Shown here: piece after piece, positions 1 to 64,000 of the stretch
Layout: every line of letters begins with the position of its first letter
Position numbering within the stretch: position 1 is the first letter of the stretch
NCBI GenBank assembly: GCA_947176375.1
Contig: CAMWQM010000006.1
Span: 13,531 to 77,530, forward strand
From: an uncultured Helicobacteraceae bacterium
GTDB taxonomy: Bacteria > Campylobacterota > Campylobacteria > Campylobacterales > Helicobacteraceae
Direction of reading: 5' to 3'
DNA length: 64,000 bases
Translations under genes and position numbers: made by a program
Notes under the pieces: model-generated
Seen by the model: only the letters and a program-made list of their open reading frames with translations
Database searches by the model: none
What the model was told of the DNA's origin: nothing

Positions 1-1518
1 ATAGCTTTATTTATTTTTCTACTTTTGTTAAATATATTTTTGCCTCCGCAAAGCGATGATATTGATGTAATGAGTAATCCAAATGGACTTGCTGCTGCAC
101 TAAACTCCTATAAAGGCTGGAATGCTAGAATAGGTGAGCTTCTCTACACTGGCTTTGTTGGCTCTATGAATGAGACTTTATTTAATATCATAAATGCTTT
201 TATTGGCACGATTTTTATCGTGCTAAATTTTGTTTTAATCTTTGGTAGATTCCCAAAAAATGGTAATGATTTTGTGATAATTGCTCTTATTTTATTCAAT
301 CTATTATATTTTAGTGCGTTTGGAAGTAATTTTTTGTGGGTAGCTGGAAGTTTAAACTATCTTTGGGGATTGTTTTTAGTCGCTTTGTTTTGGATTCCTT
401 ATCGATTATTTTATCAATCTAACACAACTAATTTAATAAATGAAGTGATGAATTTATTTAAAGGTACTTTTATAGTTTTATTTTTAATCTTAAGTTTCTT
501 TGCTGGAATGGCAAGTGAGCAGGCAGGAGCTGTTAGTATTATTATCCACTTTGTTTTGATTGTTTATATTTTTATCTATAAAAAATTCTTTTATAAAAAG
601 AAAATGATTGATAATATCTCCTTATCATCACTGCTATTTCCTGCCCCCTCCCATAGGATTTTGGATAATGGCTTTCCGCTGTGGTATAAGCTAGGCATTA
701 TTTTATTTATTCTTGGATTTTGTGTTTTGTATTTTTCACCTGGACACGAAGCTAGAGTAACTATGTATAAGGGTTTGTATCATTATTTAAGTCTTAGAGA
801 TTTTTTGGCACTAGATTTTGGTGCTAAAATGGATAGGATAATTCTAACCCTTCAAAATTCACATTCTTTAATGCTGAATTTACTTTCACTCTCTATGTTT
901 AGCACACTTTATCTATCATTTAGATTTATAAAATCTAGAGTGATTTATATTACTTTTTTATTTGTAATTTTATATCTTTTATATTTGCAAAATAATGTCT
1001 TTTTATCACATTTAATAATCATTTGTGTATGTATTAGATTTTTATATAGTAGGACTTTTCAAGCAATATTTGGAATCTATTTAATCTACTTATTAATTGC
1101 ACTTTCAACTTTTCAAATCACGCTTTTACCAGGACGAGCAAGGCTTATTGATGTTTTGCTTTTAAGTAGCATTTTTTGCATTTTGTTTAAATATTTTTCG
1201 CTCAATTCTATATTTAAAAAATATGCGAGCCGAATAGTTTTAGTGCTTGTTGTCGTATATGGGACTTTTGTGGCTGTTGAATACGCTAGATTTAATCATA
1301 GATGGAATGTGATGATAGAAGATATTCAAAAAGAGAAGCAGAAAGGTAATCTTGACATCGTGTATAAAAATATTTTTATCTCGCATTATAAAAATTTTGG
1401 TGATTGGAATAATCCCACTGACCTTTTTTTCGAACAGCCAAATATGCACTATGCAGAATATTTTGGGGTAAATAGCTTTAGAGTGGATGAATTCTATGTG
1501 TTTATTAAACGTTTTTAG
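1..1518 (+). CDS. Polytopic integral membrane protein, 5' end outside the window (GT-C-like / DUF6056-like glycosyltransferase suspected)
   Basis: The reading frame is open from nt 1; the ORF track starts it at TTG 25. The protein has about a dozen hydrophobic helices and no soluble domain. The family guess rests on general resemblance only. Confidence 0.55.
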   Translation: MALFIFLLLLNIFLPPQSDDIDVMSNPNGLAAALNSYKGWNARIGELLYTGFVGSMNETLFNIINAFIGTIFIVLNFVLIFGRFPKNGNDFVIIALILFNLLYFSAFGSNFLWVAGSLNYLWGLFLVALFWIPYRLFYQSNTTNLINEVMNLFKGTFIVLFLILSFFAGMASEQAGAVSIIIHFVLIVYIFIYKKFFYKKKMIDNISLSSLLFPAPSHRILDNGFPLWYKLGIILFILGFCVLYFSPGHEARVTMYKGLYHYLSLRDFLALDFGAKMDRIILTLQNSHSLMLNLLSLSMFSTLYLSFRFIKSRVIYITFLFVILYLLYLQNNVFLSHLIIICVCIRFLYSRTFQAIFGIYLIYLLIALSTFQITLLPGRARLIDVLLLSSIFCILFKYFSLNSIFKKYASRIVLVLVVVYGTFVAVEYARFNHRWNVMIEDIQKEKQKGNLDIVYKNIFISHYKNFGDWNNPTDLFFEQPNMHYAEYFGVNSFRVDEFYVFIKRF

Positions 1519-1719
1519 GAATTTTAAGAAATCATTATTTTTGAGATTGTAGAATCTGGTAATCTTAGTTTTTATACTTTAATAATTTAGAGCTATCAAA
1601 TCTTACTAAAATGTAAATCCATCACCTTAAAAAATGATAGTTTATTTGGGAATTTTATACTAAAAGCTATTTACTAAATTGTGCTATAATTCTTTCTTAA
1701 AATTTTTAAAGGTAATAAA

Positions 1720-2184
1720 ATGAAAATTGTAGTTATCCAAGGACCAAATCTGAATATGTTAGGACATAGAGACCCGCGGTTTTATGGGAATGTGAAGTTA
1801 GAGCAAATTCATAAAAATTTAGAGGATTTGGCAAAGCAGAATAAGTTTGAAGTTGAATTTTTTCAAAGCAATTTTGAGGGTGAAATCGTAGATAAGATTC
1901 AAGAGTGTATCGGTGAGTGCGATGGAATCTTAATCAATCCTGCTGCATATTCTCACACTTCAATAGCTATTGCTGATGCTATTGCTATGGCTCAAATGCC
2001 TGTTGTTGAGGTGCATTTAAGTAATATTTTTTCACGAGATGAATTTAGGAAAAAATCCTACACAGGTGAGGTTAGCACAGGTGTGATTGCAGGGTTTGGA
2101 CCTTTTGGCTATCACATAGGATTATTATCGCTTATGCAAATAATTACTGAAGTAACATTAGCCAAGCAAAACGTAGCGAAATGA
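1720..2184 (+). CDS. aroQ: 3-dehydroquinate dehydratase, type II
   Basis: 154 aa. N-terminus MKIVVIQGPNLNMLGHRDP and the motifs INPAAYSHTS and HLSNI are typical of type II dehydroquinase. Confidence 0.92.
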   Translation: MKIVVIQGPNLNMLGHRDPRFYGNVKLEQIHKNLEDLAKQNKFEVEFFQSNFEGEIVDKIQECIGECDGILINPAAYSHTSIAIADAIAMAQMPVVEVHLSNIFSRDEFRKKSYTGEVSTGVIAGFGPFGYHIGLLSLMQIITEVTLAKQNVAK

Positions 2185-8162: not shown

Positions 8163-9012
8163 TTTTCTAAATCTAATACAAAATGAAAGCATAGCAACAA
8201 TAGAGGGGCTAACAGGCAAAAAACCAGAGATTAGCCATTCGGGTATATTAAATCAAAGTCAAATTAATATCCAAGCGCCTTTTGTAAAAATTATTTTAGA
8301 AAATAAGGCGCAGTCAAAAGTAATATTCATTGCTCCTATTGTGCTTACCACTGCATTATCAGACTTAATGCTTGGAGGAGATGGGGCTAGTAGTGAAAAA
8401 ATTACAAATGATGATTTAGACGCACTAAAAGAGATTGCCTCAAATATATTTGGAGCAATTTCTACCACATTAAAAGGGCAAAAAAAGCTTCCAGCTATGG
8501 AGTTTAAAGTATCGAGTGCGGATATTTTAGCAAAAAGTGAGAATCTAAATAATTTTGATTCAGGTTGCTTATTTAAATTTAATTTAGATTCTATTCATTC
8601 AGAGTTCATAATACTTTTTTCTACAAATATTATTAATGAAATTAATGCTAAAGAAAATACGAAATCTCAAACCACACAAACTCAAGTCCCTCCTGCAAAC
8701 ACTTCAAACCCATCGCATTCAAGCCCAAATCACAGCATTAGCCCAGAGCTAAAAAATATCGCAATGCTACTTGATGTAAAAATGCAAGTTAGGGTGCGAA
8801 TCGGACAGAAAAAAATGCTTCTTAAAGATGTAATAGCAATGGATATAGGAAGTGTGATAGAGCTAAATCAGCTTGCAAATGACCCGCTTGAAATTTTGGT
8901 TGAAGATAAGGTTATAGCAAAGGGAGAGGTTGTTATAATTGATGGAAATTTTGGAGTGCAAATTACAGAAATTGGGACAAAGAGAGAGCGATTAGAACAG
9001 CTAAAATTTTAA
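8155..9012 (+). CDS. fliY: Flagellar motor switch protein FliY (FliN family with N-terminal CheC-like region)
   Basis: 285 aa. The C-terminal FliN/SpoA domain reads VRVRIGQKKMLLKDVIAMDIGSVIELNQ...GEVVIIDGNFGVQITEI. The gene follows fliM with an 8-nt overlap. Confidence 0.88.
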   Translation: MNDFLNLIQNESIATIEGLTGKKPEISHSGILNQSQINIQAPFVKIILENKAQSKVIFIAPIVLTTALSDLMLGGDGASSEKITNDDLDALKEIASNIFGAISTTLKGQKKLPAMEFKVSSADILAKSENLNNFDSGCLFKFNLDSIHSEFIILFSTNIINEINAKENTKSQTTQTQVPPANTSNPSHSSPNHSISPELKNIAMLLDVKMQVRVRIGQKKMLLKDVIAMDIGSVIELNQLANDPLEILVEDKVIAKGEVVIIDGNFGVQITEIGTKRERLEQLKF

Positions 9013-10636
9013 ACTAGAATCTAAAAAATAGGGGAGAGTAATGCTGTTAGAGACGCGAAATACAAATTGAATAAGGAAAATACAAAATACTTTAGATGAA
9101 TAAGTTTTAGCAATCTATGTATTCAAATAGCTTTAATAAGGCAATCTTTTAGGGGATTGTGATAATAAAATGATAGATAAAAGTAGATTCTTGTTCTTTT
9201 ATTATGACTTACATTTTTCTTTGAAATACAAGAATATAGGCAATTATATGTGAATTATTGTCACTAAAAATACATTAAATTAAATCTTTTGCAACATTAG
9301 CTTTGAATTTTTGATATAAAAGTTTAATGCACTAAATAGTGGATGGTAGGAGCTAAAATAGTGATAAAATAGTAGAATTTAAATTAAATAATAAAATCTA
9401 TATTAACTCCAACAGCAAAAATAAATTTCGCAATCACCACAGCTTTACTAATCTACTCAAATCCTGTATCCACAGCAGATTCTACAATGTAGAATCTAAA
9501 TCTGCAACAAAATCTCATCTTATGGGGTAATCTAAAATGATTACAGAATCTAAAATTATCACTGCGATTATGTGGGGCTGGTTTTCTTATACATTTATTT
9601 TTATTCCAAATAATTTAATTATCCCTTGTTTATGGAGACACATTTAAATACCCTTAGCAAAGATTTTTTGGTGAAATTTGTTAAATATTTATCCACATTT
9701 ATTAAAGAAATTGGAGCTAGAGATTTATAAGCAGTTAAGAATGGAATCTTGCATGTCACATTGCCTTATACTAACTTTGTCAAAAAGAGAAATACTCCAA
9801 ATCAAAATAAAGTATTTTTGTAAATGTGCTATTCTTGGCTAAAAATTATCCCAAAATCCTTGATAAGATGCACAAATCATCAATCAAAGAAGCATTTCTC
9901 GCAAAGATGATTACAAATGGCAAAAACTATTATGATATGACAAAGAATCTTCTTTAAGATTATAGAAATTAAACAAAATTAGCAGTTACAAGCACCATGC
10001 ATTGTGCCACTTCTTGTATTGTTATAGGGATTTCAGTGGTGCTTATTGCTGAGGGTGAGGAGAATTTAGAGCTATTTAGTGTATTAGATGGAATCTTAAA
10101 GCCATATACTTTTAATGAACTAAAATCTAGGAAAATTGACTTTAGCTCAAAAATACTTAATATTGAGGAGCTAAAAGCTGCTATGCTCAAAAATCTATTT
10201 TTTAGCGTTAAAAAGGATTGTGGAGAGATGATAGATGAAAAAATCTAAAAAATATTAGAGAAAAAATAGCCAATTTTAAAATAGATAAAAACTAAAATCA
10301 TTTAATTAAAAAGCAAAATAAAGATTTTGCCATTACAGATTCAAAATAAAAAATAAGATTCTAGCTAGAATTTTCATTGATTAAATCAAGCAAAACTTCA
10401 AAAATTATTTTTCTACACATTATTTTAAGTTTATAACCTATAATTTCAGTGATAATTTTTACTTCAATATTATTCAATTTTTTAAATTAGAGTGCTAGTA
10501 AGTGACCTCCTAAAAGAATTTAAAAGTTTCCAAATAAATGCACATATTTGCTTAAAAATTAGATTCTATTTAAAGCCTAAACAATATATTTTTAGATAAA
10601 ATCTTTACTCTAATTTTGCTTTTAAAAGGTTGTATT

Positions 10637-13411: not shown

Positions 13412-13713
13412 CCAAAATGTATAAGAGACGAAAAGCTAGAATCTAGCATTAAAATAAAAAGGTAGGGTGGCAAGTGCATCCAAACATAAAAGGCAAATTT
13501 AGAAAAACTAGCAATAAAAAGTTAGATTTTGCATTGGCAAATGTGATTACACTAAATGATATAACGATTTAATCTTTAAAATCATTATATATTGATGATA
13601 TGGACGAATTTATGTTTAAAAAGATTGAATCTATTTGAAGCGAGAGAATTGAATTTATACATTAATAGCTATGATGATTTTTTTAAGAGATATTAATTAT
13701 GAGATTGAATTAA

Positions 13714-14248
13714 ATAGTAGAGTGCAAAGCTGTATTTGAGTATTTTTATGTTTTTAAACATTTAAAGTATTATGAATATGTTATTTGGATAGATATAGAC
13801 ATTTTAATCTTACAAAGATATTACCAAATACTAGCAAATGATTGTGATATAAAATGGAGAGATGGAATGAAGCCTATTTTAAAATATTTCACAATCAAAG
13901 GTTTTGAATTTGAAATAAGCAGAATCTCAGAGCCAAATGGAGGAAACTTTAGCCTATTGCATTTCTTGCTAGACAAGATTCTAAAGTCTTATAATTTAAC
14001 CAAAGAGTATTTAGCATAGAATTATTATAAATAATGTTACGAATGTGTTTCTAAGGCATTTAGATGGAATGCCCTTTGGAACCTTAGCCTTTAAATATAT
14101 AAGCTCGATTTTAAATTTTTTTGTAGATTTGGCAAATGTCTTTCCATTTGAATATATTAAAAATACTATCATCATTCACGCGTTATGTCCTAGCGAATTC
14201 TGGAATAAAATATTTACACACTTTTTGCCTATCAAGAATGGTGCGTAA
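13714..14248 (+). pseudogene. Decayed glycosyltransferase (GT8-like, DXD type) remnants
   Basis: A stop-bounded fragment at 13714-14019 has no start codon and reads ...YEYVIWIDIDILILQRYY... (DXD-like). ORF 14045-14248 contains TIIIHALCPSEFW, resembling the GT8 HxxGxxKPW region. The assignment is tentative. Confidence 0.35.
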
Positions 14249-15104
14249 ATCACAAAATTTATCAAACTAAATACAATAAAAAGATTTTAGCGATGGCTTG
14301 GAGCTATATTCCAGTATTATGGAATCTAATTTACAAATCTATAAATCTATAATTTACAATGAAATTACAATGAATATATTGAAAATATTACAAAAGAATT
14401 TAGTAAAAAAGTCTTTATATAAACTTTAAAGAATCTTACTTTGATATTATTACTAGAGGTTTTGGCGATAGTTTATTATTAACTTTCATATTAAATTTCA
14501 TTTTAGTCTTATGCTTCAAATTATGCGTCTAAATGATATTATTTAAATAGGTTTTGGCGATAGGTTGCTTAAATGCAATTCAGAATAATACTTTGATAAT
14601 TTTTGCAAAAATAATCTTAGTTGCTTTTAAAAACACTATATCAAAAAATATTGAGATAAATATGGTATTTAGTGAGTTTAAAGCTTTGTTAGCTTCTATT
14701 TTTAATGATTTTTAGCCGATTAAGCAAAAAGGAAAAATAAACTCTAAAATAACTCATATCTTTAAAAACTGCACCCAAAAAACATAAAAATAGAGTTTAA
14801 TTGTAATAGAATCTGCGGAGTTTAAAAGCAATAATATTGAAAGTTTTCAAGATTTAAAAATCACACAAATAAATATCAATAATATGAATCAATATTCTAT
14901 GATAAGAAATAGCACCAAAATTAGACCATTTATAAGCTTTTGCAAAAAATAAGAAAGCATTAGATTTATGTTTTAATTGCAAGTTTTTGCATTATAAATA
15001 TTTTTGTCAAGAATTTTCTATATTAATTTATTGTTTAAGGCTAAAAAATCAATGCTATTTTGAATCCAAATTGAGCAACTTTTATTTTTGGATAGAGTTA
15101 AAAA

Positions 15105-18128: not shown

Positions 18129-19975
18129 ATGCTAAAACTTGCTTTCAAAAATGTTAATATTTTTGTATTGCTATTTATTTCGTTTTTTGCGATTTTTTGC
18201 TCATTTTGGCTAATAATAAATTATGGAAACATAGATTTTAGTGCGATCATCTTTCATCTTAAAATGCCATATGGTGCGAATAGTTATTTTATAATTAGCT
18301 TTATCTTAGCTAGTATTGTGCCAAGCCTTATGCTTTCTTATTTGTGCTGTTTAAAGCGCATTATGCCTCTTATCATCATATTTGTGGTCTTTACTTTGCT
18401 TGTGGTATTAAAATATAACTATTTGGGCATTGTAGAGCGAATCTATAAAATAAAATTTGCGCTAAATTATAATTTATATCCATATATAGATTATTTGTAT
18501 GTTTTTTGTGGCATTGTAGTGGCGCTTTTGCTTGTATATTTTATGAATAGAAAATTTGGAAAATTTATTTATAAAAGAAGTATTTTGTTTGTTATGATTA
18601 TTTTTGTAGCTTCGCTTTATTCGCTTCATAGGCAATTCGATATAGTTAGATTCTTTACTAGAGATTACTCAAACTTCTATGAGCAAAACTATGTTTTTTA
18701 TGAATTGCCAAATAATTTAGAGGGCTTTAGAGTAGATACTAAAGATTCTATAGATTCCACATTAGAAATTCACATAATCCCACAAACAAAACGAAATCTA
18801 ATCATAATATTTTCTGAATCTATGGAATCTACTTATTCAAATACTGCTAATCTGCTGGAGCCAAATTTAGCAAATGGGGGAGTTGCATAATTTAGAATAT
18901 CCAGATTCCAACTTAAATGTGGAATTAAAAATAGATTCCACAAATGCAGAATCGAAATGGAAACTAAATATAGATTCTAAACTCAAAACTTCCACTTTAA
19001 ATTCCCCTCAAAATCTAGAATCTAATAATTTAGATTCCGCCATAGACTCCACTTTGCAAACAAAAAGGTAAAACAGCCTTTAAATCACTTCAAAATAAAA
19101 CTAATCTAATTCCGAATCTAACTTCTCTAGCAAATAGCCATATAAACTTTAGCACGACAGATTCTTTTGGTGGGATTATACAAGTTAAAAATACCTCTCC
19201 AACAATTGCTGGGACTTCATCTTATATGTGTGGTGTGCCTTTAAATGTTAGGATTGGCAATTATTTTAATATGCAAAATTTTCTATCCTCTGCTTCTTGT
19301 ATTAGTGATATACTGCATAATCTTGGCTATCACCAAATAGCACTTTTAGGATATGATTCTAGATTCGCTGGGTCCGCTGGATTTTTTAGGACGCATCATA
19401 TCAATGCAATCGATTTTCATAATTTCAAAGAAATGCTAAATATAAATAATGATAATCTAAATGATTTTAGTGGTTTTTGGGGGATAAAAGATAGCCTAGT
19501 TTTTGATTATGCAAAGAAATATCTTTCGCATATTGATAGCACAAAGCCTTTTGCACTCTATATTCCGACAGCTGATACATATTTTCCTGAAGGCTATGTG
19601 GATAAAGCTTATTGTAAAGGTCTGGATACCACTTATAATTCTGCAATTAAGTGCAATGATAAAATAATTAGCGATTTTGTCTCTTGGGTGCAGAGGTAGG
19701 ATTTTTATGAAAATACTACAATTGTAATCGTTGGTGACCATTTATCAATGAAACAAAATTATTTTAAAGAAAATGCCCCTAGATTCATTTTCAATATTTT
19801 TATTAATCCATCTTTTAGTAAGAATCCTAGCGCTGATTTGATAAAAAATAGAAAGTTATCTCATTTTGATATAACTGCTTTGATTTTAGATTCACTAAAT
19901 ATTAAGACTAAAGTCTTTGGTTTAGGACGTAATCCTCTTTATCAAAAAAACTTTACTAGAAATTTATGGAGTTGA
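18129..19975 (+). pseudogene. Disrupted sulfatase-family membrane enzyme (OpgB/MdoB- or LtaS-like phosphoglycerol transferase)
   Basis: - The N-terminal TM domain plus LIIIFSESMEST is in frame 0 (18129-18890).
- An LDS/LES-rich insert follows in frame 1 (18874-19071).
- The catalytic domain is in frame 2 (about 19046-19699; TIAGTSSYMCGVPL).
- An in-frame TAG at 19697 is followed by ...TIVIVGDHLS... up to 19975.
- The frame changes fall near a G5 run (18876-18880) and an A5 run (19062-19066). Confidence 0.75.
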
Positions 19976-24160: not shown

Positions 24161-24530
24161 GATTTAGATTCTTAAAGCATAAAATAAAGCAATTTGATTA
24201 TTTAGTGGATTTTAATTAAAAACTACTAAAATATTTAGTAATTAAATCTAGTTTATTTTGTATTTATCCTTATGATAATCAAAATATTTAGTATAAAAAT
24301 TATTAAAAATATGTAATTTATCACATTTGTTTCTTATTTGTTTTATTGTTGTTGCAAATTATAGTTTATAGCCTTAAGATGGGGATATGGAGTTTTTATT
24401 TTTACACTCTTGTGCTATATTAAGAAAAATAGCAAATCTTTATCATTTATTAATCTGTTTACATTAGCTCAAATATTAATTGACTTTTAATTGCTTATTT
24501 TAGTAGAATCATAACTTTGTTTTTCAAAAT

Positions 24531-25452: not shown

Positions 25453-25454
25453 AT

Positions 25455-26234: not shown

Positions 26235-26269
26235 ATCCTTAACCTTTTTATCTAAAATTTTGGAATCCT

Positions 26270-41700: not shown

Positions 41701-44125
41701 AGTTGAGGTAAAAATAGATGAAAAATATGCACCGAATCTCTATGTAAGTGTATTTATGCTACAAAATTATGAGAGTTTGGATAATGATAGGGCGCTTAGA
41801 TTATATGGTGTTGTGCCACTTAAAATAACAAATCAGAATTCTAAAATTAATCTTGAAATAAATGCTAAAGATAAAATAGAGCCAAATAGCGACTTAAGTA
41901 TAGAAATTTCCAATAAAGAAAATAAGCAAGTTACTTACACTTTAGCGATAGTAGATGAAGGGCTAATTAATTTAACAGATTTTAAAACGCCAAATCCGTG
42001 GAATTATTTCTACGCAAAAACAAGACTAGGAATAGAGAGTTTTGATACATATGATTATATAATCAACAAGACAAGTGGAAGTGTAAATAAAGTCTATGCA
42101 ATTGGTGGTGATGAGGAATTTGAGCAATCAAATAAGCAAAAAGATGATAGCGCAGATAGATTTAAGCCAGTGGTATTTTTCACTCCACCTACAAAGAGTG
42201 ATGAGAAAGGTTATGCTAAATTAAACTTTAAGATGCCATCATATTTTGGTAGTATTAGAGTAATGCTAATTGCAGTGGATAAAAACAGCTATGGAAGCAT
42301 ATTTAAAGATATAAAAGTCTCTGCACCTGTTGTAATGTTACCCACAATCCCACGAAGCCTAAAAATTAATGATAATTTTAGCTTTCCAATCGAAGTAATA
42401 CCAATAGAAGATGTTAAAAATGCAAAAATCACAATTAAAAGTGATGGAATAATAGATTTTAATCAAAATATTAGTGATTTAGTTTTTAGCTCTAAAACTC
42501 CCAAAACTATATTTTTTGAGGGCAAAGTGAGAGAGGAGTTAGGCATTGAAAATATAGATATTACTTTGGAGAGTGGCGGTTTTAAAATGCAAGATATAAC
42601 ACAAATTGACATAAAATCGCCAAATCCATATATTAGTATTTCAACTAATTATATGTTAAATGCCAATAATGAGCTTGAAATATCTGCACCTAGCGACTTT
42701 GTCAAAAACTCAAATAAGGGCAAAATCACTATAAGCACAAATCCGCTTCTTAGCTTAGAGCATAGAATAATGTGGCTTATGCGATACCCTTATGGCTGCA
42801 TTGAGCAGACAACTTCAAGTGTATTCCCACAATTATTTATTGATAAATTAAGCAATGCTGATTTTATCGACAAGCAAACGATAATTGACAATATCAATGC
42901 TGGAATCGCACGAATCTCATCATTCCAAACAGCAGATGGAGGATTCTCATATTGGCAAGGAAGTGGGAATAGTGATAAATGGGGGAGTGCCTATGCAGGA
43001 CATTTCTTAATTATGGCAAAGAAAAATGGCTACTATGTGAGTGAGGAATTGTTAAAGCGATGGGAAAAATATATGATAAATGATGCAATAAATGGCAGAA
43101 ATGATGTCTACCCACTTTATTTACTTGCGCTAAATGGCAATCCACAATTAGGTAGTATGAATACAATCTATGAAAATGATTTAAAAAGTTTAAGCACTAC
43201 AAATAGGTGGCTTTTGGCAGCAAGCTATAAACTAGCTGGATTTGATGATATTGCTTCTAAAATCACTAATGGTTTAAGCATTGAGCCAGATGAAACTTCC
43301 AGCTATTATGATTACTCTTATGGCTCACGATTGCGAAATGAAGCCATAATTTTACAGGCTTATAAGATTGTAAAAAATCAAATTAATGAAAGTTTATACA
43401 ATAATATCAAAGATAAGTTAGAGACAAATAATTGGCTCTCAACGCAAACTACAAGCTATGCCTTGCTAGTTTTAGCGGATATTAAAGAAGATTCTAAAAA
43501 TGTAAAGATGGATGGCAAAATTACTATTAATGGCAAAACTCAAAACTTTAATAGCAATAAAGATAAATTAAATTTTGACTTAAATAGCGGAATGGCAACT
43601 ATTAGCTCAAAAAATAATTTATTTATAAATTATATTTGGGATGGTATTAGCACTGATAATAAAGGTGATAATATCGCAAGCAATATGCGTTTGTATAGGA
43701 ATTTCGTCCAAATAGATGAATATGGTAACGAAAGATCGATTGATGTGCGGGAACTAAAAAGCTCGGAAAGCTTTTATATCAAGCTTGTATTAGAAGGGAT
43801 AGATTCTTCTTACATAGATATGAAAAATATTGCATTAACGCAGAATCTCCCTAGTGGATGGGAAATAGAAAATACTAGATTGAATAATGACTATGTTCCA
43901 GAAGTTGTAAATATCGCAAATAGCAAGATAACTTATATAGATATAAGAGATGATAAGATTATGTGGTTTTTTGATTTATATGATAAAAGAAGAGTAGTCT
44001 ATGTGAAAGTAAATGCAGTAACTCCGGGGACTTATACCCTCCCACCTGCCTATGCTGAGGCAATGTATAATGGCTCTTATAGGGCTAGCACAGATAGCTT
44101 TAGAGTTAGAGTTAATGCTAAATAA
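38771..44125 (+). CDS. Bacterial alpha-2-macroglobulin family lipoprotein (YfhM-like) with intact thioester
   Basis: 1784 aa with lipobox LFFGAC. The thioester motif YPYGCIEQTTSS has CIEQ at 42797-42808. Size and the adjacent pbpC are typical of the family. Confidence 0.92.
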   Translation: MNFFRILILAVFALFFGACGDDKSSLASFTSGVVDTNITPQVVFKDEVTKNINNIFESSGEIKINGKNYFGKYMFNQNNSLILLPDSTFNANENYKIEFDFKAINEITQSNIQTKKFNMEFKTSELIIETPRANFIKDKNDLSKINLDVTFEISQEIPFESIKENVKLLDSSNKAVDIDIIAFGTKKFNIISTPLPSPQNGDETYTLIFEKKIGVAKDIKIPITAIKIVNLDIIDIKTNNKNIEVRFSSPLAMNLNLNNFIKITPSIDFSASLAGDTINIKAPFKESQTYKIEILKGIVSRPPSNLKLEESYSKEVQFYNQEPKIVFSNNGVFLPDSNNKKIAFKSINVKKARVVVKKIYTNNITQFVHNSDFFKNSMRDYYLYDFNIMGDIIEESEIKIDSQKNVWVQNEIDLSGIKDLSGIFIVSLHFSEDDVDYTFPSGTAGWKKRNYFYDNGNIYKQLIFSNMALIAQKYGDNIIVSSLDIRTNKPLSDIIVESISANNQVISSGISNKNGDTVLKYKGSGDLEHLETFYITARSEDFKNFAILKQNQRVNEDGFDIDGISPKNGIKAFIYTDRGVYRPGDSVNLNIIARNGEAALTHPIKLTIINPRNKKQIDSLNIESSSDGMYYYEFKTPKNADTGIYNAIIDIGDNVFTHKIAIESVVPNRIKTQINVEDMINITKEQNINFSLQSDYLFGAPASELEYKVEANITPKIFNSKKYKDYTFDNPTNLRYTSNKLLSGTLNENGFSQRSIKLDSINDINKNLEANIIAWVYENSGRAVSARKKIYLKKFDSFVGIKKPITNYIKQNANITIPVILLDENENPIPNRKLKYRIYNNSYSWWWDYDNYNQFLRSIKADKNTRLIKEGEIISKNEISHIMFQVKERGEILLEVEDSTNKQSASILLYSSSWGEPLDVDKITQLKIKANKDSYIHNENAKVSFESVKGGRALITISNNSEIVDRYWIDTDEIQSQVEVKIDEKYAPNLYVSVFMLQNYESLDNDRALRLYGVVPLKITNQNSKINLEINAKDKIEPNSDLSIEISNKENKQVTYTLAIVDEGLINLTDFKTPNPWNYFYAKTRLGIESFDTYDYIINKTSGSVNKVYAIGGDEEFEQSNKQKDDSADRFKPVVFFTPPTKSDEKGYAKLNFKMPSYFGSIRVMLIAVDKNSYGSIFKDIKVSAPVVMLPTIPRSLKINDNFSFPIEVIPIEDVKNAKITIKSDGIIDFNQNISDLVFSSKTPKTIFFEGKVREELGIENIDITLESGGFKMQDITQIDIKSPNPYISISTNYMLNANNELEISAPSDFVKNSNKGKITISTNPLLSLEHRIMWLMRYPYGCIEQTTSSVFPQLFIDKLSNADFIDKQTIIDNINAGIARISSFQTADGGFSYWQGSGNSDKWGSAYAGHFLIMAKKNGYYVSEELLKRWEKYMINDAINGRNDVYPLYLLALNGNPQLGSMNTIYENDLKSLSTTNRWLLAASYKLAGFDDIASKITNGLSIEPDETSSYYDYSYGSRLRNEAIILQAYKIVKNQINESLYNNIKDKLETNNWLSTQTTSYALLVLADIKEDSKNVKMDGKITINGKTQNFNSNKDKLNFDLNSGMATISSKNNLFINYIWDGISTDNKGDNIASNMRLYRNFVQIDEYGNERSIDVRELKSSESFYIKLVLEGIDSSYIDMKNIALTQNLPSGWEIENTRLNNDYVPEVVNIANSKITYIDIRDDKIMWFFDLYDKRRVVYVKVNAVTPGTYTLPPAYAEAMYNGSYRASTDSFRVRVNAK

Positions 44126-46474: not shown

Positions 46475-46639
46475 TTTTTAGATTTGGGTAAGAAAATTCA
46501 TAGCCTTTGGAATAGATACCATTTTATGAAAGCCCAGATTTTTGGGGTTTGGCTAGGACTAATCCTATTTAAAATCTAGATTCTAGCCATATTTTAGAAT
46601 CTATAAAATCACTAAAATTAGATTCTAAAATTTTTAATG

Positions 46640-50617: not shown

Positions 50618-52911
50618 ATGCTCTTTAGTTCTTTTATTTTTATCTTTGCATTTTTACCTTTGATGTTTGTTGTATTTCATATTCTAAAATACTTTTCATT
50701 TTATAAAAGTGCTAAAATCTCTCTTGTTTTAGGAAGTCTATTTTTCTATTCTTTTTGGAAACTTTCTTATCTTCCAATTCTGCTTAGCTCAATTATCATA
50801 AATTATTTTCTAGCTTTAATGATTACTAGATATGGGGGGGGGAATCGCATATTTTAGAATCTAATTTAGATTCTAAATCAAATACACTTTCTAAAAGTTT
50901 AGTTTCCACTTCTATACATTTTATTTCAAACTCTAAATTAATGCCATTTAAACTTACATCATCTCTAACTCCAAAGGCTTTTCTAATTCTAGGCATTATA
51001 TTTAATCTTGCTTTATTAGGTTTCTTTAAATATACAGATTTCTTTTTATCAAATGTTAATACTATCTTTAATATTATAAATCTAGATTTTAATATTACAT
51101 TGCCTCATATTATGCTTCCTCTTGCTATTTCATTTTTTACATTTCAACAGATTGCTTTTCTAGTAGATTGCTATAAACAAAGAAAAGATAGCACTAAAAG
51201 TTTAGAAACTAAAACAGAATCCACTTTGAATATAAAAAATACTAATTTAAATGAAGTTTTAGAATGTGAAGATTCTATTATTAAACACAAGAAAGAATCT
51301 AATTTAATTTTAGATTCTAAAGATTCCCAATCTCTAAATATAAATACTACAATAGAATCTAAAACTTTTAATTATAATGCAAGCATAAATCCTAATATTC
51401 CTAATAATCAAGCTAAAGTCATAAAATATTCCGCTCCTCTAGACTTTCTTGATTATTGTTTATTTGTTTGTTTCTTTCCACAACTTATTGCTGGTCCAAT
51501 AGTGCATCATAAAGAGATGATGCCACAATTTAATAATTTGCAAAATAAAAGAAAAGATAAAAAATTGAATTTAGATTCCAAAGTAAATGCGGAAATTAAA
51601 AAGGAAAATGAAAGTTTAGAAGCTAAATTAAATAAATCAAATGTGGATTCTAAATTAGATTCCACTCTAAACATAGAATCTAACAGCATCAATTTAATAA
51701 ATCACAACAAACAATATTTAGATTCTAAAGTTGAATCTAATTCTATCCCAAATCAAATAAATCAAAATAAAACATCCTTTTTAGATTACAAACTTATTGC
51801 TAAAGGATTGTTTATCTTTAGTATAGGATTATTTAAAAAGGTATTCATAGCAGATTCATTTGCTAAATGGGCTAATAAAGGATTTGAGGCAGTAGAGAAC
51901 GGAATTGTGCTAAATGTTGTAGAATCGTGGGCTACATCATTATCTTATACTTATCAACTCTATTTTGATTTTAGCGGATATTGTGATATGGCAATAGGAT
52001 TAGGACTTCTATTTGGAATCGTGCTGCCTATTAATTTTTATTCTCCTTATAAAGCATTAAATATTACTATATTCTGGAGGAAATGGCATATAACTTTAGG
52101 AAGATTCCTAAAAGACTATATCTATATCCCACTAGGAGGCAATAAAAATAGCATTAATAAAATAAAAAATAATATTCTAACTTTAAGAAGCCTCTTTCTT
52201 GTAGCATTCATTAGTGGAATCTGGCACGGAGCAGGATGGGGCTTTATTATCTGGGGGACAATGCATGGAATTGCTATGGTAATTCATAGAGCTTATAGGT
52301 TTATTATAGATTATTTTTTACAAAAAGAGGAGAATAGAAAGAAAGAAGATAATAAATATTTAAAAACTATAATGGAATGTAAATCAAATTTAGATTCCAA
52401 AGTAGAATTAGAATCTACGAATAATATAAATATTCAAAGTTTAGATTCTAAATCTAATTTAGCTTTAGATTCCAATCACAATAAATTTAATAGCTTCCAT
52501 AGATTTACTAGATTCTCATTAAAAAGCTTTTTAGATTCTACATTCTATAAAGTGATTTGCTTTATTATTACTTTTAATTTTATAAATATTGCGTGGATAT
52601 TCTTTAGAAGTGAGAATGTAAGTGGAGCAATCAATCTTTTAAGAGGAATGTTTGGGGTAGAGTGGGTCGATTTGCCGCTAAAGTGGTGGAGAATGCCAGA
52701 AACTTTAAAGACAATTGAAGGTAGAAATGAAACTATAATTTATATCATCCTAGCTTTTGTAGTATGTTTATGGATTAGGAATAGTTGGGAGATGGCTAGA
52801 GCTTTTAGTGGTAGAGTATGGGAGGTTGTGCTATTTGCTGTTTTTATTCAAATTTCATTTAGTTGTATGCAAGATGCAACAATACAAGAATTTATATATT
52901 TTAACTTTTAG
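50618..52911 (+). CDS. MBOAT-family O-acyltransferase (AlgI/DltB/PatA-like), frameshifted at a poly-G tract in this sequence and carrying LDS-rich inserts
   Basis: - ORF 50618-50857 encodes the MBOAT N-terminus (MLFSSFIFIFAFLPL...).
- ORF 50941-52911, whose frame is open from 50843, encodes the rest: ISFFTFQQIAFLVDCY, FFPQLIAGPI, WRKWHITLGRFLKDYIYIPLGG and the conserved His in SGIWHGAGW.
- The two frames differ by one nucleotide at G9 (50834-50842). Confidence 0.85.
50834..50842 (+). repeat. Homopolymeric G9 tract (candidate phase-variation switch)
   Basis: The sequence is tatGGGGGGGGGaatc. With G9 the frame stops at TAG 50855. Adding one G (G10), or removing two (G7), would fuse the N-terminal ORF to the downstream MBOAT frame. 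Confidence 0.8.
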
Positions 52912-55103: not shown

Positions 55104-56689
55104 AATTTTATTTTGAATTCTTATTCTCTACTTTTTGTAAGAATTTTTTCTAGTTATTTAAGTTATGTATAGCTCTTTTGGAATGATTGTCTCTATGGTT
55201 AGATTCTACTCTTTTAATATCTAGCTTTAGAAAGTAGATTCTGCTATGTTTGTTTAAAATTTTTTATAAATTTGCATAAATTAATCACTTCTACTTCGCA
55301 AGTTTCCTCTGTGTGCTGGATACTAGGAATAATTCCATTTCCTTGAGATAATAAATTGCCATCATTTAGGAATTTTGTCTTGCAGTTCCTGTTTGAGACT
55401 ACCTACGATATAAAAATACATTTTCATTATATTCATATTTTTTTATAAAATTGCATTTAGGTATATATTTGGCTCGAAGCTATAAACTCTAGCTCCGCAG
55501 TAAGCATAATATCAGTGATTAATCCTGTGGGAGCACTGCAATCAATGCAAATGGGCTTGTCATCATTTAAATCAATTTTTGCTAAATTTTTGATTTTTTG
55601 TTTGGTAGTGTTTATTTTGAATTGCTGTGTTTTTGAATATCTTTGTTTTGCTATTTTTACTTTGAAATTTTGCCATTAATATATTGATTTTCCTTTTTTA
55701 TAGAGCTTTTTTAGAATATTTTGTAAAAAATGTCATAATATTGCTTTGGGATATAAGCGTTGTGAATTAAGTTTAGTTTCCATAGTCCTTTATCATCTAG
55801 CAGCGTATTAACTATTTCTAATATAATCAAAGATATTTTCTTCAGTTTCATCGTCCTATATTGCATCACTAAATTTTGTATTCTTTTCAGTTGGCTTGTA
55901 AAATATTTTTGCACAAATTTGATAGAATTCCCCATATTCATTTGGAAATTGCCTATTCAATAAAATACAGAAATACTTTTCTTTTTGGACAACTAAAAGT
56001 CCTATCTCAAAAAATTGCTACCCTCTAGTGGAATCTAGCATATCTGCTCAAATGCAGTGATGATTATTTCAAATGGTGCTTTGTGAAAACTTACGCATTT
56101 TGAGTATTCCCCAATAGTGATTGTATGCTCTTAAACTTTGCTAGTGGTGCTTTAGCGGCAATAACAGAGTTTAAACTTGTAATTATATCTGCCATCCCTC
56201 TCTTTTATTTAATTATTTAGAGTATTTAACAAGCTAAATTATGCAATAGATTCTACATAATTTATTAAATTTTCTAGTTAAATTACTTACTACTCTCAAA
56301 ACTATTTGTGTGATAAGCCATTCTTAAAAATTTGTAGTATAGTTTCCGAATCCTCACTTCTCATAGGAATTTTTCCTTATATTTTGATAAAGTTTTACTC
56401 TCTCATTCTCATTTAAGGGGACACAAATTTCCTAAAAATCCTTTGTATTGTTAATATATTCGTTTCTTGCCGAATTAAAATGCAACAACTCTTTTGTCTA
56501 TCTTTTATTCACCTTATCCTTCTTTTTTAGATTCTAAATTACTATTAAAAGACAATAATTAGCAAAAACCAAAAATAGCACTAGATTTAACTTTAGTTTC
56601 TTTCTAACTTCTTTATTATTTTAAATTTCGCAATTTTTTGTGTAAAGATTTAACTTTTTTTAAGTCTTAAATTTACAAAATTTATTTTT

Positions 56690-59711: not shown

Positions 59712-59775
59712 ATTTCCCCTTTATTCTACAAAATTTATTTGTGTAGATTCTATACTTAAATTTTAGAATCTAGTC

Positions 59776-60222
59776 TTATTCTGCTACTATATCAACCTTG
59801 CAAGTAGCGTGGATTCCATATCCTAGCTTTAAATCTATCTCATAAATTCCTGTGCTTTTGATTGGATTTTTAAGTTCTAGGGCTTTTTTATCAATCTTAA
59901 TATTGTGAGATTCTAAAAATTTCTGTGCTATTTCTTCTTTTGTGATCGCCCCATATAGCGAACCATTTGCTCCAACTTTTTTGTTAATAACTAAAGTTAA
60001 ATCTTTAATTTTGCTAGCCAAGGCGTTTAGCTCTGTGATTAGCTTCTCTTCCTCCTCTTTTCTCTTTTTTTCATTAGCTCTAAACTTTGCGATAGCCTCA
60101 TTTGTAGCTAATATTGCAAAACCCTTGCCTATAAGAAAATTTCTCCCATAGCCATCTTTTACTTCGCAAATTTCTCCTGCTTTTCCTAGTGATTTCACAT
60201 CTTTTGTTAATAAAACTTTCAT
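59776..60222 (-). CDS. rplI: 50S ribosomal protein L9
   Basis: 148 aa. [36 protein letters not shown] is the canonical L9 N-terminus. Confidence 0.93.
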
Positions 60223-62420: not shown

Positions 62421-62686
62421 TTAAGATTCCGCTTTAAAAAGCGTAATCTTTTTTTGCAAAGCTAATTAAAATCTTTAAATTTATAGTCTAAATCCTAGTC
62501 TAGCAAACTTTAAAAACATAACTAAATAAGATTATTTAAGTTATATATTTTTGAATTGATACAGAGAATAACAGCAATATATCTCTAGCTTAAAAAGCAA
62601 AAGCTTTCTTAACCTAATTGATAAAATATTTTAATATTTTTTAAGATATAATTTGCCTTATTTAAAGTTTATTTTAGGAGATTTGA

Positions 62687-63280
62687 ATGAGGATATTTAG
62701 GAATTTAATTTTAGGGCTTGGAATTTTATTATTTATAGCTGGCTGCTCTTCAAAAAATAATTTAGGTGAGGGAGCAAGCAGCATAGAAGATTCTGCTTTG
62801 GAAGTAAATAATCTAATGAATGCGCCTTCTTGGGTATTAAATGGAGGAGGAAGTGGATTTAGTGCGATTGGTTCGGCAGAAATTACAAAAGCTGGACTCC
62901 AATTTGCTAGAAATGAAGCTATTGCTATGGCTAGAGATGAGCTTGCAAGAATGATATCTGTAAAAATCGAAGGTGTTGTTAATAATGCGATTTCGCAAAG
63001 CATTGGGAATAATGCTTATGACTCTAGCTTCTCTAATGTAGAAAAATTTGGCGAGCAAATAACAAGACAAGTTGTCTCTCAAACTCTTACAGGCTCAAAG
63101 CAAAAAGACACTTGGATTACAGGTGATGGAAAGCAGATTTATGTATTAATTGAACTAGATTCGAATTTAGCAGAATCTGCAAGACAAAATATAATGAAAA
63201 ATATGTCTAGTAAAGATATGCCAGTAGAAAAAGATAAATTTTTAAACGCATTAGACAAAGCTTTGGGTAATGAGTTTTGA
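62687..63280 (+). CDS. LPP20 family lipoprotein (Lpp20-like)
   Basis: 197 aa with lipobox FIAGCSS and the LPP20 domain region GSAEITKAGLQFARNEAIAMARDELARMISVKIEG. A TATAAT box is at 62647-62652. Confidence 0.75.
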   Translation: MRIFRNLILGLGILLFIAGCSSKNNLGEGASSIEDSALEVNNLMNAPSWVLNGGGSGFSAIGSAEITKAGLQFARNEAIAMARDELARMISVKIEGVVNNAISQSIGNNAYDSSFSNVEKFGEQITRQVVSQTLTGSKQKDTWITGDGKQIYVLIELDSNLAESARQNIMKNMSSKDMPVEKDKFLNALDKALGNEF

Positions 63281-64000
63281 AAATCATAAAATATTTTTTA
63301 GCACTAATTTGTTCTCTAGGCTTTATTGCTTGCTCTAATGTGAGCTATCCTAGTTGGTATTTTTCAAGTAATCAAGATGAATATTATTTATATGGATTTG
63401 GTGAAGCAAAAAATTTGCAGGAGGCAAAAGCAGTGGCATTGCAAGATTTGGCTTATGGCATCTCGCTAAATTTGGAATCCAACCTAGAGGTTAAAAAACA
63501 ACAATTAGATTCCATATTTTCTAGTGGGGTTAGCAATGATATTGCAATTAGTGTGAATGATATTGAGTTAGATAGTATAGATTTTCCACTAATTGAGTAT
63601 AGTAATGATTTAATATACATTCAAGCAAGGCTAAGTAAAGAGAGATTTACAAATAAAATAAAAAGTGATATTAATGATTATGCCACTTCGATTAGAGGGA
63701 TTTTAAATGCTGTTAAAAGTTCAAATTGCAATACACTTTTACCAAAAGATAGAAAATCTTTGCAAGATTTACTAACAAAAGCGAATCTAAAAAATAATCT
63801 TTTGCTCTCATTTAATGAGGCTTTAGTGCAACAAAATTTATTTAGCAATGTAAAAACGATATTAGAAATGGAATCTAGTGCAGATTATACTACATATTTG
63901 GAAACTGGCAGTAACAGGGAATATGAATTAATTAATAGTGCTTTAATGAGCGAATATGGGAAGTTTTTTAATATCATTGCTAAGAATCCTGATCTTTTAC
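63277..64000 (+). CDS. LPP20-family lipoprotein (HP1457-like), 3' end outside the window
   Basis: TTG 63277 overlaps the preceding stop. The lipobox is LGFIACS and the LPP20-like region is YLYGFGEAKNLQEAKAVALQDLAYGIS. The frame stays open to the window end, and the ORF is not in the track because it is truncated. Confidence 0.6.
   Translation, partial: MKIIKYFLALICSLGFIACSNVSYPSWYFSSNQDEYYLYGFGEAKNLQEAKAVALQDLAYGISLNLESNLEVKKQQLDSIFSSGVSNDIAISVNDIELDSIDFPLIEYSNDLIYIQARLSKERFTNKIKSDINDYATSIRGILNAVKSSNCNTLLPKDRKSLQDLLTKANLKNNLLLSFNEALVQQNLFSNVKTILEMESSADYTTYLETGSNREYELINSALMSEYGKFFNIIAKNPDLL

Follow-up and report, generated by a model that had tools for sequence, protein, structure and literature searches.

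An over-abundant near-palindrome with a GAWTC core in a gut Helicobacter chromosome and its relatives, possibly a self tag for natural transformation

The uptake sequences of Neisseria (DUS) and Haemophilus (USS) occur at densities in about the same range as the exact 9-mer reported here. Both are marked by their depletion in acquired DNA, and for USS a footprint in the proteome similar to the one below has been described. Within the genus Helicobacter, uptake in H. pylori is carried out by ComB. The DNA that H. pylori imports includes foreign lambda DNA (PMC10046745), and H. hepaticus is without comB (PMC3895553). The passage of PMC10046745 that cites Beauchamp et al. 2017 describes Campylobacter jejuni as importing only DNA methylated at RAATTY, and a recent study gives the cyanobacterial word HIP1 a methylation-dependent link to transformation efficiency (bioRxiv 10.1101/2024.09.10.611283).

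The window that we analyzed is a stretch of 64,000 nt from an uncultured Helicobacteraceae bacterium (GCA_947176375.1, contig CAMWQM010000006.1, 13,531-77,530 of the forward strand). The word TAGAWTCTA, whose core is GAWTC, is found at about 30 times the frequency expected by chance in the chromosome of this gut Helicobacter and in its relatives. We found no prior description of this excess in the literature searched. The window contains 52 exact copies (0.81/kb), whereas 100 dinucleotide-preserving shuffles have 1.74 on average and never more than 6; an initial annotation of this DNA had given a rough expectation of 1-2 per 64 kb. The copies start at 2356, 8585, 9015, 9490, 10560, 12117, 13182, 13437, 17607, 18971, 19016, 20489, 23577, 24775, 26915, 27806, 28400, 31529, 31662, 32133, 33184, 33321, 33381, 35656, 37882, 37896, 39276, 46577, 46595, 46619, 48151, 50855, 50867, 51311, 51353, 51674, 51719, 52409, 52442, 52532, 53126, 55200, 56247, 56528, 57730, 59744, 59764, 61055, 61259, 61307, 61433, and 62158. 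The initial annotation had listed 51 starts, of which 49 are exact; 37881 and 37895 become 37882 and 37896, and the copy at 33184 had been overlooked. Its near-equal split of the center base holds for T (27), with A at 25 instead of 24. Copies of TAGAATCTA number 25 and 27 on the two strands, and those of GAATCT 136 and 131, so there is no strand bias and the earlier rejection of a Chi-like oriented signal is upheld.

All of the top over-represented 6- to 9-mers of the window come from this one motif family, which is graded, has the oriented consensus 5'-T-R-GAATC-T-A, and peaks at the exact 9-mer. GAWTC occurs 337 times, AGAWTCT 147 times, and the hexamer GAATCT/AGATTC 267 times. The excess is 2.5-4-fold for the core, with GAWTC at 2.7-fold, and 7-30-fold for longer words; GASTC is depleted, and the restriction-type palindromes GATC and ACATGT are strongly avoided. 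Preferences reach positions -2, -1, +5, and +6, and a longer consensus proposed earlier, TTTAGAWTCTAAA, is weak, as positions beyond the 9-mer are near the A+T background. The word had also been called a perfect palindrome, but the symmetry is imperfect: there are 75 copies of GGAATCT and 20 of its mirror GGATTCT (11 and 2 in intergenic DNA only). The hexamer is evenly distributed, being present in all 2-kb bins and in all genes longer than about 250 bp, cas9 included.

The over-representation persists under both kinds of comparison that the initial annotation had named as able to undo it, a Markov and codon-usage model and intergenic controls. For the whole window, a Markov model of order 3 predicts 4.6 copies and one of order 4 predicts 10.1; the excess does not fade until orders 5-6, where the enrichment of the sub-words themselves enters the model. 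The 26 coding copies compare with 5.3 (maximum 11) under synonymous-codon shuffling and with 1.3 when codon order is shuffled, so the coding excess goes beyond codon usage. The 25 intergenic copies compare with 0.3, 0.7, and 2.1 under Markov models of orders 1, 2, and 3 trained on intergenic DNA.

Nearly all coding copies (25/26) are in the frame xTA-GAW-TCT-Axx, which confirms the L-D-S or L-E-S reading made at the outset. Peptides of the form [LIV][DE]S[IMTNKSR] number 60, compared with 17.6 expected and a shuffle maximum of 29; the suggestion that some of the coding excess is due to AT-rich codons is therefore right only in part, since these peptides are themselves inflated 3.4-fold. The densest gene is an MBOAT/DltB-like gene (51112-52911, plus strand), with 7 exact 9-mers and 19 hexamers (9.6 per kb) counted in its ORF, 50941-52911, and every copy there is translated L-[DE]-S. 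The cas9 operon has a normal density of 3.6 hexamers per kb and thus gives no sign of the depletion in acquired DNA that marks DUS and USS, a point against an uptake role.

The exact 9-mer is about 4-fold denser outside genes (2.08/kb) than inside them (0.50/kb). By spacer type, AGAWTCT is densest between tandem genes (5.9 per kb), followed by convergent genes (3.8), and has only 1.0 copy per kb in the promoter-only spacers of divergent genes. Its positions in spacers are skewed toward the upstream stop codon, as had been remarked; the accompanying statement that nearly every spacer has a copy was too strong, since, among 28 spacers with a length of 30 bp or more, 13 have the exact 9-mer and 20 have AGAWTCT. 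The nine closest pairs, no more than 45 bp apart, are all inverted (9/9), with stems of 9-13 bp. The pair TAGAATCTA-N5-TAGATTCTA (37882-37904, plus strand) begins 17 bp 3' of the stop codon of a pilin-like gene and forms an 11-bp stem with a minimum free energy of -11.1 kcal/mol (z = -3.35). The spacer that separates the PBP1C gene from a convergent DsbG-like gene has three copies with centers T, A, and T (46577-46627, unstranded), the last two making a hairpin with a 13-bp stem followed by AAAATTTTT (-12.3 kcal/mol, z = -3.1). Upstream of the MBOAT gene, TAGAATCTA-N3-TAGATTCTA (50855-50875, plus strand), adjoining a G9 tract at 50834-50842, also has an 11-bp stem (-10.4 kcal/mol, z = -3.2). 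The gene rplI (59776-60222, minus strand) has another inverted pair 4-24 bp past its stop codon (59744-59772, minus strand). The pair at 18971-19024 (plus strand) is 45 bp apart and 3' of a gene ending at 18890, and its pairing is extended by a third, imperfect copy, TTAGATTCC (-11.7 kcal/mol, z = -5.2). Single intergenic copies (windows 9005-9060 and 13425-13480) fold no better than shuffled sequence. Nothing is common to the copies beyond about 9 bp, and they are without terminal repeats or conserved flanks, which argues against the footprint of a miniature mobile repeat proposed in the initial annotation.

The GAWTC excess is clade-wide in enterohepatic Helicobacter and Wolinella, with flank "dialects" in each lineage. 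Among the relatives, each sampled by 13-23 kb, the observed/expected ratio of GAWTC is 2.2-4.3 in the Helicobacter and Wolinella loci (2.34 in an H. hepaticus-type locus), and RAATTY there is about 0.8-1.0. The reverse is found in Campylobacter loci, where the ratio of RAATTY, the proven uptake tag there, is 1.5-1.8 and rises to 4.8 in one metagenome-assembled genome, with GAWTC at 0.1-0.55; in C. jejuni the RAATTY enrichment is only about 1.7-fold, below the GAWTC effect here. There is no GAWTC excess in the gastric species H. pylori (0.74-0.97), H. suis (0.56), and H. mustelae (0.90), or in reptile lineages. The core is constant between lineages and the flanks drift: the top-ranking word is AGAATCT in one Helicobacter group with 30-50% G+C, TGGAATC(T) in the H. 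pullorum/H. ganmani group, and GGGAATCG in Wolinella. Any lineage-specific factor lost from the gastric species would predict this pattern equally well.

Between strains of 97.7-98.6% identity (42 kb compared), the retention of motif copies is close to that of other words of equal length from the same compartment, and gains are about as frequent as losses; only the hexamer in genes is slightly more conserved than other words. This near-neutral turnover fits many weakly favored sites at equilibrium. One-mismatch neighbors of the core are reduced to 0.3-0.7 in the enriched lineages only (words there include GASTC at 0.36-0.47, GCATC at about 0.5, GAACC at 0.3-0.5, and GAATD at 0.5-0.9), as if they were funneled into the motif. 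One strain difference, at window position 47704, is exactly GACTC versus GATTC.

Based on these observations, we tentatively read the motif, with a probability of roughly 0.42, as a genome-wide tag by which self DNA would be recognized in natural transformation; it may depend on methylation and would have been built up by molecular drive. Among the four roles first suggested, a DNA-uptake-type sequence appears to fit best: it would account for how dense the copies are and for their equal orientations, for their placement at 3' ends with inverted pairs, and for the frame bias, the clade-specific dialects, and the distribution among species. A methylation link, another of the four, is possible. 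That no known uptake sequence is palindromic, to our knowledge, counts against the uptake reading. The tag would be a DNA-uptake or recombination-enhancing sequence whose core, extended here to T-R-GAATC-T-A, is preferentially bound by the uptake machinery of enterohepatic Helicobacter and Wolinella, and the core may require N6-adenine methylation, like RAATTY in C. jejuni. Tagged fragments would be imported and recombined more often, so that better matches would displace worse ones and the word would build up wherever it is tolerated, which would be 3' intergenic DNA, where pairs could double as hairpins, and one reading frame in genes. The machinery would probably be type IV pilus or type II secretion-like and not the H. 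pylori-type ComB. A PilT/PilU-family (T2SSE) ATPase in the window (35711-37303, minus strand; TIGR01420 at 404 bits, cut-off 319; PF00437) is a candidate part of such a machine. Divergent from it, a prepilin-type protein of 140 aa (37443-37865, plus strand), with the motif G|FTMIELV and four conserved cysteines, is a candidate pilin or DNA receptor; its structure model is weak (pLDDT 66), its fold-search matches are not significant, and no similarity to the DUS receptor ComP is detectable. The literature searched gave no uptake or transformation data for any enterohepatic Helicobacter, and no GAWTC methyltransferase was found with a CcrM query (tblastn) in the loci searched, which include 113 kb of this genome.

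A rather unlikely alternative is that the motif is a HIP1-like iterated palindrome, the extended target of a conserved solitary methyltransferase of the GAWTC/GANTC class, selected for a chromosome-wide methyl mark serving replication, strand discrimination in repair, or nucleoid structure, with no part in uptake. The near-palindromic core does match a known class of m6A targets (PMC6787082, PMC8919816), its constancy beside drifting flanks and its evenness across all genes would be expected, GATC and ACATGT are avoided where the motif is enriched, and HIP1 (GCGATCGC, with a GATC core) is the nearest precedent for so abundant a palindrome. However, H. pylori has a documented GANTC methylation system and no GAWTC enrichment, methylated GANTC/GAWTC is depleted in Alphaproteobacteria (PMC8919816), the GGAATCT/GGATTCT imbalance is unexpected for a symmetric methyltransferase site, single copies are, apart from the slight genic hexamer effect, no better conserved than other words, and the methyltransferase search gave no match in the loci examined. 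Given the recent tie of HIP1 to transformation efficiency, this explanation partly merges with the self tag. We consider it quite unlikely that very-short-patch-like repair, or another biased mutation or mismatch correction, turns near-matches into a functionless GAWTC. The neighbor depletion confined to enriched lineages, the GACTC/GATTC difference, the neutral turnover, and the involvement of all DNA, cas9 included, are as such a bias would produce, but repair acts everywhere and leaves unexplained the 4-fold intergenic excess, the 3'-end preference, the scarcity in divergent spacers, and the inversion of close pairs. By our estimate, central S-to-W funneling yields at most about 2-fold, short of the enrichment of core and longer words; the outer preferences are wide for a patch-repair enzyme, and the peptide distortion implies a force able to override protein-level selection.

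The sites of known site-specific organizers of the chromosome (parS, matS, and those of SlmA and Noc) number in the tens per genome. We are very doubtful that 5'-TRGAATCTA is bound by an abundant nucleoid-associated or chromosome-organizing protein that shapes the chromosome or silences transcription: at about 1 site per kb, the window far exceeds those numbers, even if its extrapolation to thousands of near-palindromic sites per genome, the highest enrichment in non-coding DNA, and a lineage-specific motif could suit an abundant, lineage-specific protein. The motif is also scarce in promoter-only spacers and concentrated 3' of stop codons, individual sites are not conserved between strains, and, with flanks that change so fast from one species to the next, the protein and thousands of sites would have had to co-evolve repeatedly. 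The asymmetric flanks speak against a symmetric dimer, so the dimeric-protein site suggested initially is weakened. It is highly improbable that most copies belong to intrinsic transcription terminators or to RNA hairpins. Inverted pairs directly 3' of stop codons do fold significantly better than shuffled sequence, but close pairs hold only about 10 of the 52 copies, a single copy cannot form a hairpin and single intergenic copies show no better folding, half of the copies are intragenic, and the A+T-rich stems have, in most cases, no clear U-tract.

Among known systems, the DUS of Neisseriaceae (GCCGTCTGAA and its dialects, PMC3630211) and the USS of Pasteurellaceae (AAGTGCGGT) resemble the motif in being 9-10-mers at about 1 copy per kb with both orientations equally frequent, over-represented outside genes, forming hairpins from inverted pairs 3' of genes, with a preferred coding frame and peptide footprint, a core that is conserved while dialects differ by clade, and weakly constrained single copies. 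Unlike them, the motif is an A+T-rich near-palindrome with a degenerate center W and a core in a methyltransferase target class, and, as a putative tag, it belongs to a different phylum, the Campylobacterota. RAATTY/CtsM of C. jejuni shares the phylum and is likewise a short, A+T-rich palindromic word with an adenine-methylation target, enriched (1.5-4.8 in Campylobacter loci) exactly where GAWTC is not; it is a 6-bp palindrome, whereas our motif is a 5-bp core with flanks and, on this sequence-level comparison, a much stronger enrichment reaching 7-9 bp. HIP1 is also a hyper-abundant short palindrome on a methyltransferase core, found clade-wide in genes and spacers, but it is perfect, of even length, and G+C-rich, while the motif here has odd length and asymmetric flanks, and the hosts are unrelated. 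The adenine methyltransferases CcrM, M.HinfI, and M.HpyAIV have targets (GANTC/GAWTC) identical to the motif core (PMC6787082, PMC8919816); these methylated words are under-represented in Alphaproteobacteria (PMC8919816) and not enriched in H. pylori, in contrast to the 2.7-fold excess of GAWTC in this chromosome.

The exact 9-mer TAGAWTCTA occurs 52 times in the window (0.81 per kb; 25 copies are centred on A and 27 on T), against 1.74 on average, and never more than 6, in dinucleotide-preserving shuffles. The initial annotation had listed 51 copies, accurately except that one copy (33184) was overlooked and two coordinates were off by one. Third- and fourth-order Markov models of the whole window predict 4.6 and 10.1 copies, and the excess disappears only at orders 5-6, because sub-words of the motif are enriched too: the core GAWTC was observed 337 times (124-196 expected), the hexamer GAATCT/AGATTC 267 times (about 81 expected) and the 7-mer AGAWTCT 147 times (19-34 expected). 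The top over-represented 6- to 9-mers in the window are all derivatives of this single motif, and, as with the uptake sequences of Neisseriaceae (DUS) and Pasteurellaceae (USS), one word at about 1 per kb and in order-of-magnitude excess heads the list of over-represented oligomers. On a simple gene map (48 ORFs, 81% of the window covered), 26 copies of the 9-mer are coding (0.50 per kb) and 25 are intergenic (2.08 per kb). Shuffling synonymous codons with the proteins unchanged left 5.3 coding copies (maximum 11), shuffling codon order left 1.3, and intergenic-trained Markov models (orders 1-3) predicted 0.3-2.1 intergenic copies. A codon-usage artefact is thereby ruled out, and because the excess remains under the codon shuffles and the intergenic models, the over-representation claimed in the initial annotation holds against both Markov and codon-usage models and intergenic controls. 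A literature search, whose coverage excluded most subscription journals so that an earlier mention is possible, found no paper describing the motif.

We built a logo from all 337 GAWTC sites, oriented by centre base. It reads T (55%), R (82%; A 53, G 29), GAATC, T (79%), A (53%), and farther positions are at background. The motif had been described as a perfect palindrome; the AGAWTCT core is palindromic apart from its centre, but the flanks are used asymmetrically (A 53% or G 29% at -1, T 79% at +5), and GGAATCT outnumbers its mirror GGATTCT 75 to 20 in the window and 11 to 2 outside genes. In this the motif departs from the perfect palindrome of the HIP1 type (the cyanobacterial highly iterated palindrome). 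Both orientations are used equally, with no replication-strand skew, as in DUS and USS (GAATCT 136 and 131, GGAATCT 40 and 35 on the two strands), which excludes a Chi- or KOPS-type signal and agrees with the earlier rejection of a Chi-like oriented signal. The footprint of a mobile repeat, which had been put forward as a candidate, was abandoned because the copies have no extended flanks in common: sequence beyond the 9 bp is at background, a repeat search recovers the motif alone, and a MITE or REP element is thus ruled out. Within genes, 25 of the 26 9-mers lie in the frame xTA-GAW-TCT-Axx, and the proteins contain 60 [LIV][DE]S[IMTNKSR] peptides, where residue shuffles yield 17.6 (maximum 29), and 32 LDS peptides against 7.1 expected.

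No 2-kb bin and no sizeable gene of the window lacks the hexamer, and this holds for cas9 as well. Thirteen of the 28 spacers contain the exact 9-mer and 20 contain AGAWTCT, whose density per kb is 5.9 between tandem genes, 3.8 between convergent genes and 1.0 in divergent, promoter-only spacers; between tandem genes its distribution leans toward the upstream stop codon. The nine closest pairs of 9-mers (<=45 bp apart) all have opposite centre bases (9/9) and are therefore true inverted repeats. Paired copies fold into hairpins with stems of 9-13 bp and z-scores of -3 to -5, and single copies fold no better than shuffled sequence. The pairs show a bias toward 3' ends, and inverted pairs or hairpins 3' of genes are also a feature of DUS and USS.

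The densest gene in the window is an MBOAT/DltB-like gene (51112-52911) with 7 exact 9-mers and 19 hexamers, and the N-terminal half of its protein is rich in L-[DE]-S. Upstream of it, a G9 homopolymer (50834-50842), a possible phase-variation tract, adjoins the motif hairpin at 50855/50867; poly-C/G 7-mers are among the top words in the related loci L011, L025, L029 and L077. The gene for a bacterial alpha-2-macroglobulin of 1784 aa (38771-44125) is followed by that for PBP1C, a known conserved gene pair, and has an average hexamer density and a single exact 9-mer. Three stretches of 1.6-2.4 kb (13412-15104, 31231-33658 and 55104-56689) contain no ORF above about 95 aa and no Rfam match and could represent either decayed genes or non-coding regions that escaped annotation. 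Only one exact 9-mer lies in the 1.7 kb of the first stretch.

The products encoded in the window include IleRS, MetRS, Cas9, HtpG, PBP1C and alpha-2-macroglobulin, and its IleRS shares no more than 66% identity with the IleRS of enterohepatic-type Helicobacter genomes. A type II cas9-cas1-cas2 operon lies in the region 26575-31516 (flanks 24161-33658). The whole window is devoid of a CRISPR repeat array, and there are no regular repeats in the 2.4 kb after cas2. DUS and USS are scarcer in recently acquired DNA such as islands, prophages and plasmids; here, motif density in cas9 is normal, and there is no clearly foreign segment within the window. Some uptake sequences have a dedicated receptor, such as the ComP minor pilin of Neisseria. 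The window codes for a PilT-family ATPase and, divergently from it, a 140-aa prepilin-type protein; its AlphaFold model is weak (pLDDT 66), the best Foldseek match is a type IV pilin at a non-significant E = 0.47, and no ComP match was found in this search with the weak model, which gives no support to a role as a ComP-like receptor. A tblastn search with an approximate CcrM query, covering 113 kb of the source genome and 13-23 kb per relative, gave no match to a GANTC methyltransferase, which says little given how small a part of each genome was covered. Scanning viral contigs for paired motifs gave 120 loci, mostly chance pairs or tandem repeats (L185, L165, L087), and an unrelated T4-like phage fragment (L147), which tell nothing about phages of these hosts.

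Observed/expected ratios of GAWTC (at order 2) and RAATTY were computed in 80 loci around ileS from species-representative genomes (13-23 kb per relative). GAWTC is enriched 2.2-4.3-fold, with RAATTY at about 0.8-1.0, in three groups that differ in their top 7-mers: AGAATCT in a Helicobacter group of 30-50% G+C (50 against 1.7 in one locus of 50% G+C), TGGAATC or GGAATCT in an H. pullorum / H. ganmani-type group, and GGGAATC or GGAATCG in Wolinella; GGGAATCG is likewise a dialect word. A common core with differing flanks among related species is what defines dialects of DUS and USS, and the clade-wide hyper-abundance in both genes and spacers is as in HIP1. Two reptile-associated Helicobacter have no top over-represented 7-mer, GAWTC at about 1.1-1.2 and no RAATTY enrichment; Sulfurovum-type lineages also lack a top 7-mer (GAWTC 0.5-1.0, RAATTY 0.7-1.5), and in Arcobacter-like lineages both words are at about 1. 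ACATGTA is the top 7-mer in two of the four Arcobacter-like / Campylobacterales loci (33 against 3.7 expected in L063, 23 against 3.1 in L070) and could be a further lineage-specific abundant palindrome. In Campylobacter, the top words derive from AAATTT and GAWTC is at 0.1-0.55, with RAATTY at 1.5-1.8 in the C. jejuni loci L007, L009 and L018 and at 4.8 in one metagenome-assembled genome (L022); in these RAATTY-rich loci GAWTC is depleted to 0.1-0.5. According to PMC10046745, citing Beauchamp et al. 2017, C. jejuni imports only DNA methylated at RAATTY by CtsM. The likeness of the present motif to this type lies in enrichment alone: the target word is over-represented, and enrichment is silent on use as a tag. 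Some motif sites are shared among IleRS orthologues, one column in 7 species, for example, which is confounded by the close kinship of several loci.

Urease loci retrieved via named UreA proteins served as controls. GAWTC stands at 0.74-0.97 of expectation in H. pylori, 0.90 in H. mustelae, 0.56 in H. suis and 2.34 in an H. hepaticus-type locus, where AGAWTCT is enriched 5.1-fold and GASTC is at 0.20. DNA uptake in H. pylori goes through the ComB type IV secretion system. This species takes up foreign DNA such as that of phage lambda (PMC10046745), comB is also present in H. felis (PMC4197744), and H. hepaticus lacks it (PMC3895553). Taken with the control values, GAWTC enrichment therefore tracks lineages in which ComB is not the uptake route.

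In about 600 kb of pooled sequence from GAWTC-enriched lineages, several one-mismatch neighbours of the core are depleted (GASTC 0.36-0.47, GCATC about 0.5, GAACC 0.3-0.5, GAATD 0.5-0.9); gastric species have these words near 0.8-1.1, with the exception of GAACC (0.55). The pattern resembles a funnelling of near-matches into matches, and since several neighbours are depleted in the same lineages, the depletion of GASTC does not need a separate explanation as a GAGTC-type restriction signal. GATC is strongly avoided in the window (22 observed, 215 expected at order 2, ratio 0.10), with a count of zero over 20 kb in the relatives L019, L039 and L005, and ACATGT, with 7 copies expected, does not occur at all. 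Such avoidance is of the restriction type and runs opposite to the excess of GAWTC; GAWTC itself is not avoided as a GANTC restriction-modification site, being 2.7-fold enriched rather than depleted.

Over 42 kb of aligned sequence, sister strains (Logan assemblies SRR25448169 and SRR25571612) are 97.7-98.6% identical to the source, and retention of the motif was compared with that of all words of equal length in the same compartment. For the 9-mer, 0.82 of coding copies were kept against 0.90 for all words (p 0.28) and 0.77 of intergenic copies against 0.79 (p 0.68); the corresponding values are 0.95 against 0.92 (p 0.28) and 0.88 against 0.82 (p 0.33) for the 7-mer, and 0.979 against 0.929 (p 0.001) and 0.86 against 0.84 (p 0.76) for the hexamer. 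Only the coding hexamer is kept slightly above baseline, and strain-private 7-mer copies are balanced at 6 and 8. Baseline-like retention and balanced private copies indicate a population at equilibrium in which single copies are at most weakly constrained, and purifying selection on single copies was rejected on this comparison. At 47704 the source has TTAGACTCTAA and the sister strains (L202/L203) have TTAGATTCTAA, a GASTC/GAWTC polymorphism at the motif centre.

Our preferred explanation, to which we give a probability of roughly 0.4, is that the motif may be a transformation 'self' tag, possibly methylation-dependent as in C. jejuni. That an uptake machine reads the word and that the word is methylated are both steps that we infer from its enrichment. 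The reciprocal pattern of RAATTY and GAWTC and the negative controls from gastric species connect the phenomenon with the type of uptake system found in each lineage. A methylation-linked palindrome of the HIP1 type, serving some other chromosomal role, agrees with the core sequence and the clade pattern, but where GANTC or GAWTC methylation is documented it accompanies depletion (PMC8919816) or, in H. pylori, no enrichment, and the flanks here are asymmetric; we think this role unlikely, if worth keeping in view. A link between HIP1 itself and transformation has been reported (bioRxiv 10.1101/2024.09.10.611283), and the two explanations therefore overlap.

Repair or mutation bias would account for the depleted neighbours and the neutral turnover, yet it fits neither the placement rules nor the size of the effect and seems improbable to us. 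More doubtful again is a nucleoid-protein site, given a density unlike known cases and a scarcity in promoter spacers that it would leave unexplained, and a pure terminator role, which could apply at most to roughly ten paired copies, is very improbable.

More tentatively, and with some doubt, the transformation-tag reading can be extended to the phylum: Campylobacterota lineages with pilus-type uptake might each possess a 'self' word of their own, short, near-palindromic and probably carrying a methyl mark. Campylobacter would use RAATTY, enterohepatic Helicobacter and Wolinella would use GAWTC with flanks particular to each lineage, and some Arcobacter-like lineages would perhaps use ACATGT. 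Molecular drive would have amplified each word until spacers and protein sequences were reshaped, and gastric Helicobacter would have lost the system on switching to the non-specific ComB type IV secretion route. If GAWTC is the core of such a tag in enterohepatic Helicobacter and Wolinella, it could account for sequence barriers that limit gene flow between species of gut Helicobacter, and the genetically difficult H. hepaticus, H. cinaedi and H. pullorum would gain practical transformation tags as well as a marker for recognising foreign DNA in their genomes. If uptake is not what reads the motif, a word that triples certain peptides points to a genome-wide force that is still unexplained.

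DUS dialects have been described (PMC3630211), and the motif shares with DUS and USS a single dominant word, its density, the lack of orientation bias, a 3'-end intergenic excess with inverted pairs, a frame bias with a peptide footprint, and dialects on a constant core in which each site is weakly constrained. These features, with the reciprocal pattern and the gastric controls, are why we rank a transformation 'self' tag first. On the phylum-wide reading, the motif would be the first uptake-sequence family outside Neisseriaceae and Pasteurellaceae, and it would link classical uptake sequences with methylation-dependent discrimination. Within the same phylum, the C. jejuni lineage is proven already and H. 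pylori is a natural negative control; with a new case there, the evolution and loss of uptake specificity could be tested directly. To our knowledge, genome-saturating uptake sequences are known from two bacterial families only and methylation-gated uptake from one species; a GAWTC-core tag with dialects in enterohepatic Helicobacter and Wolinella would be a third, independent case.
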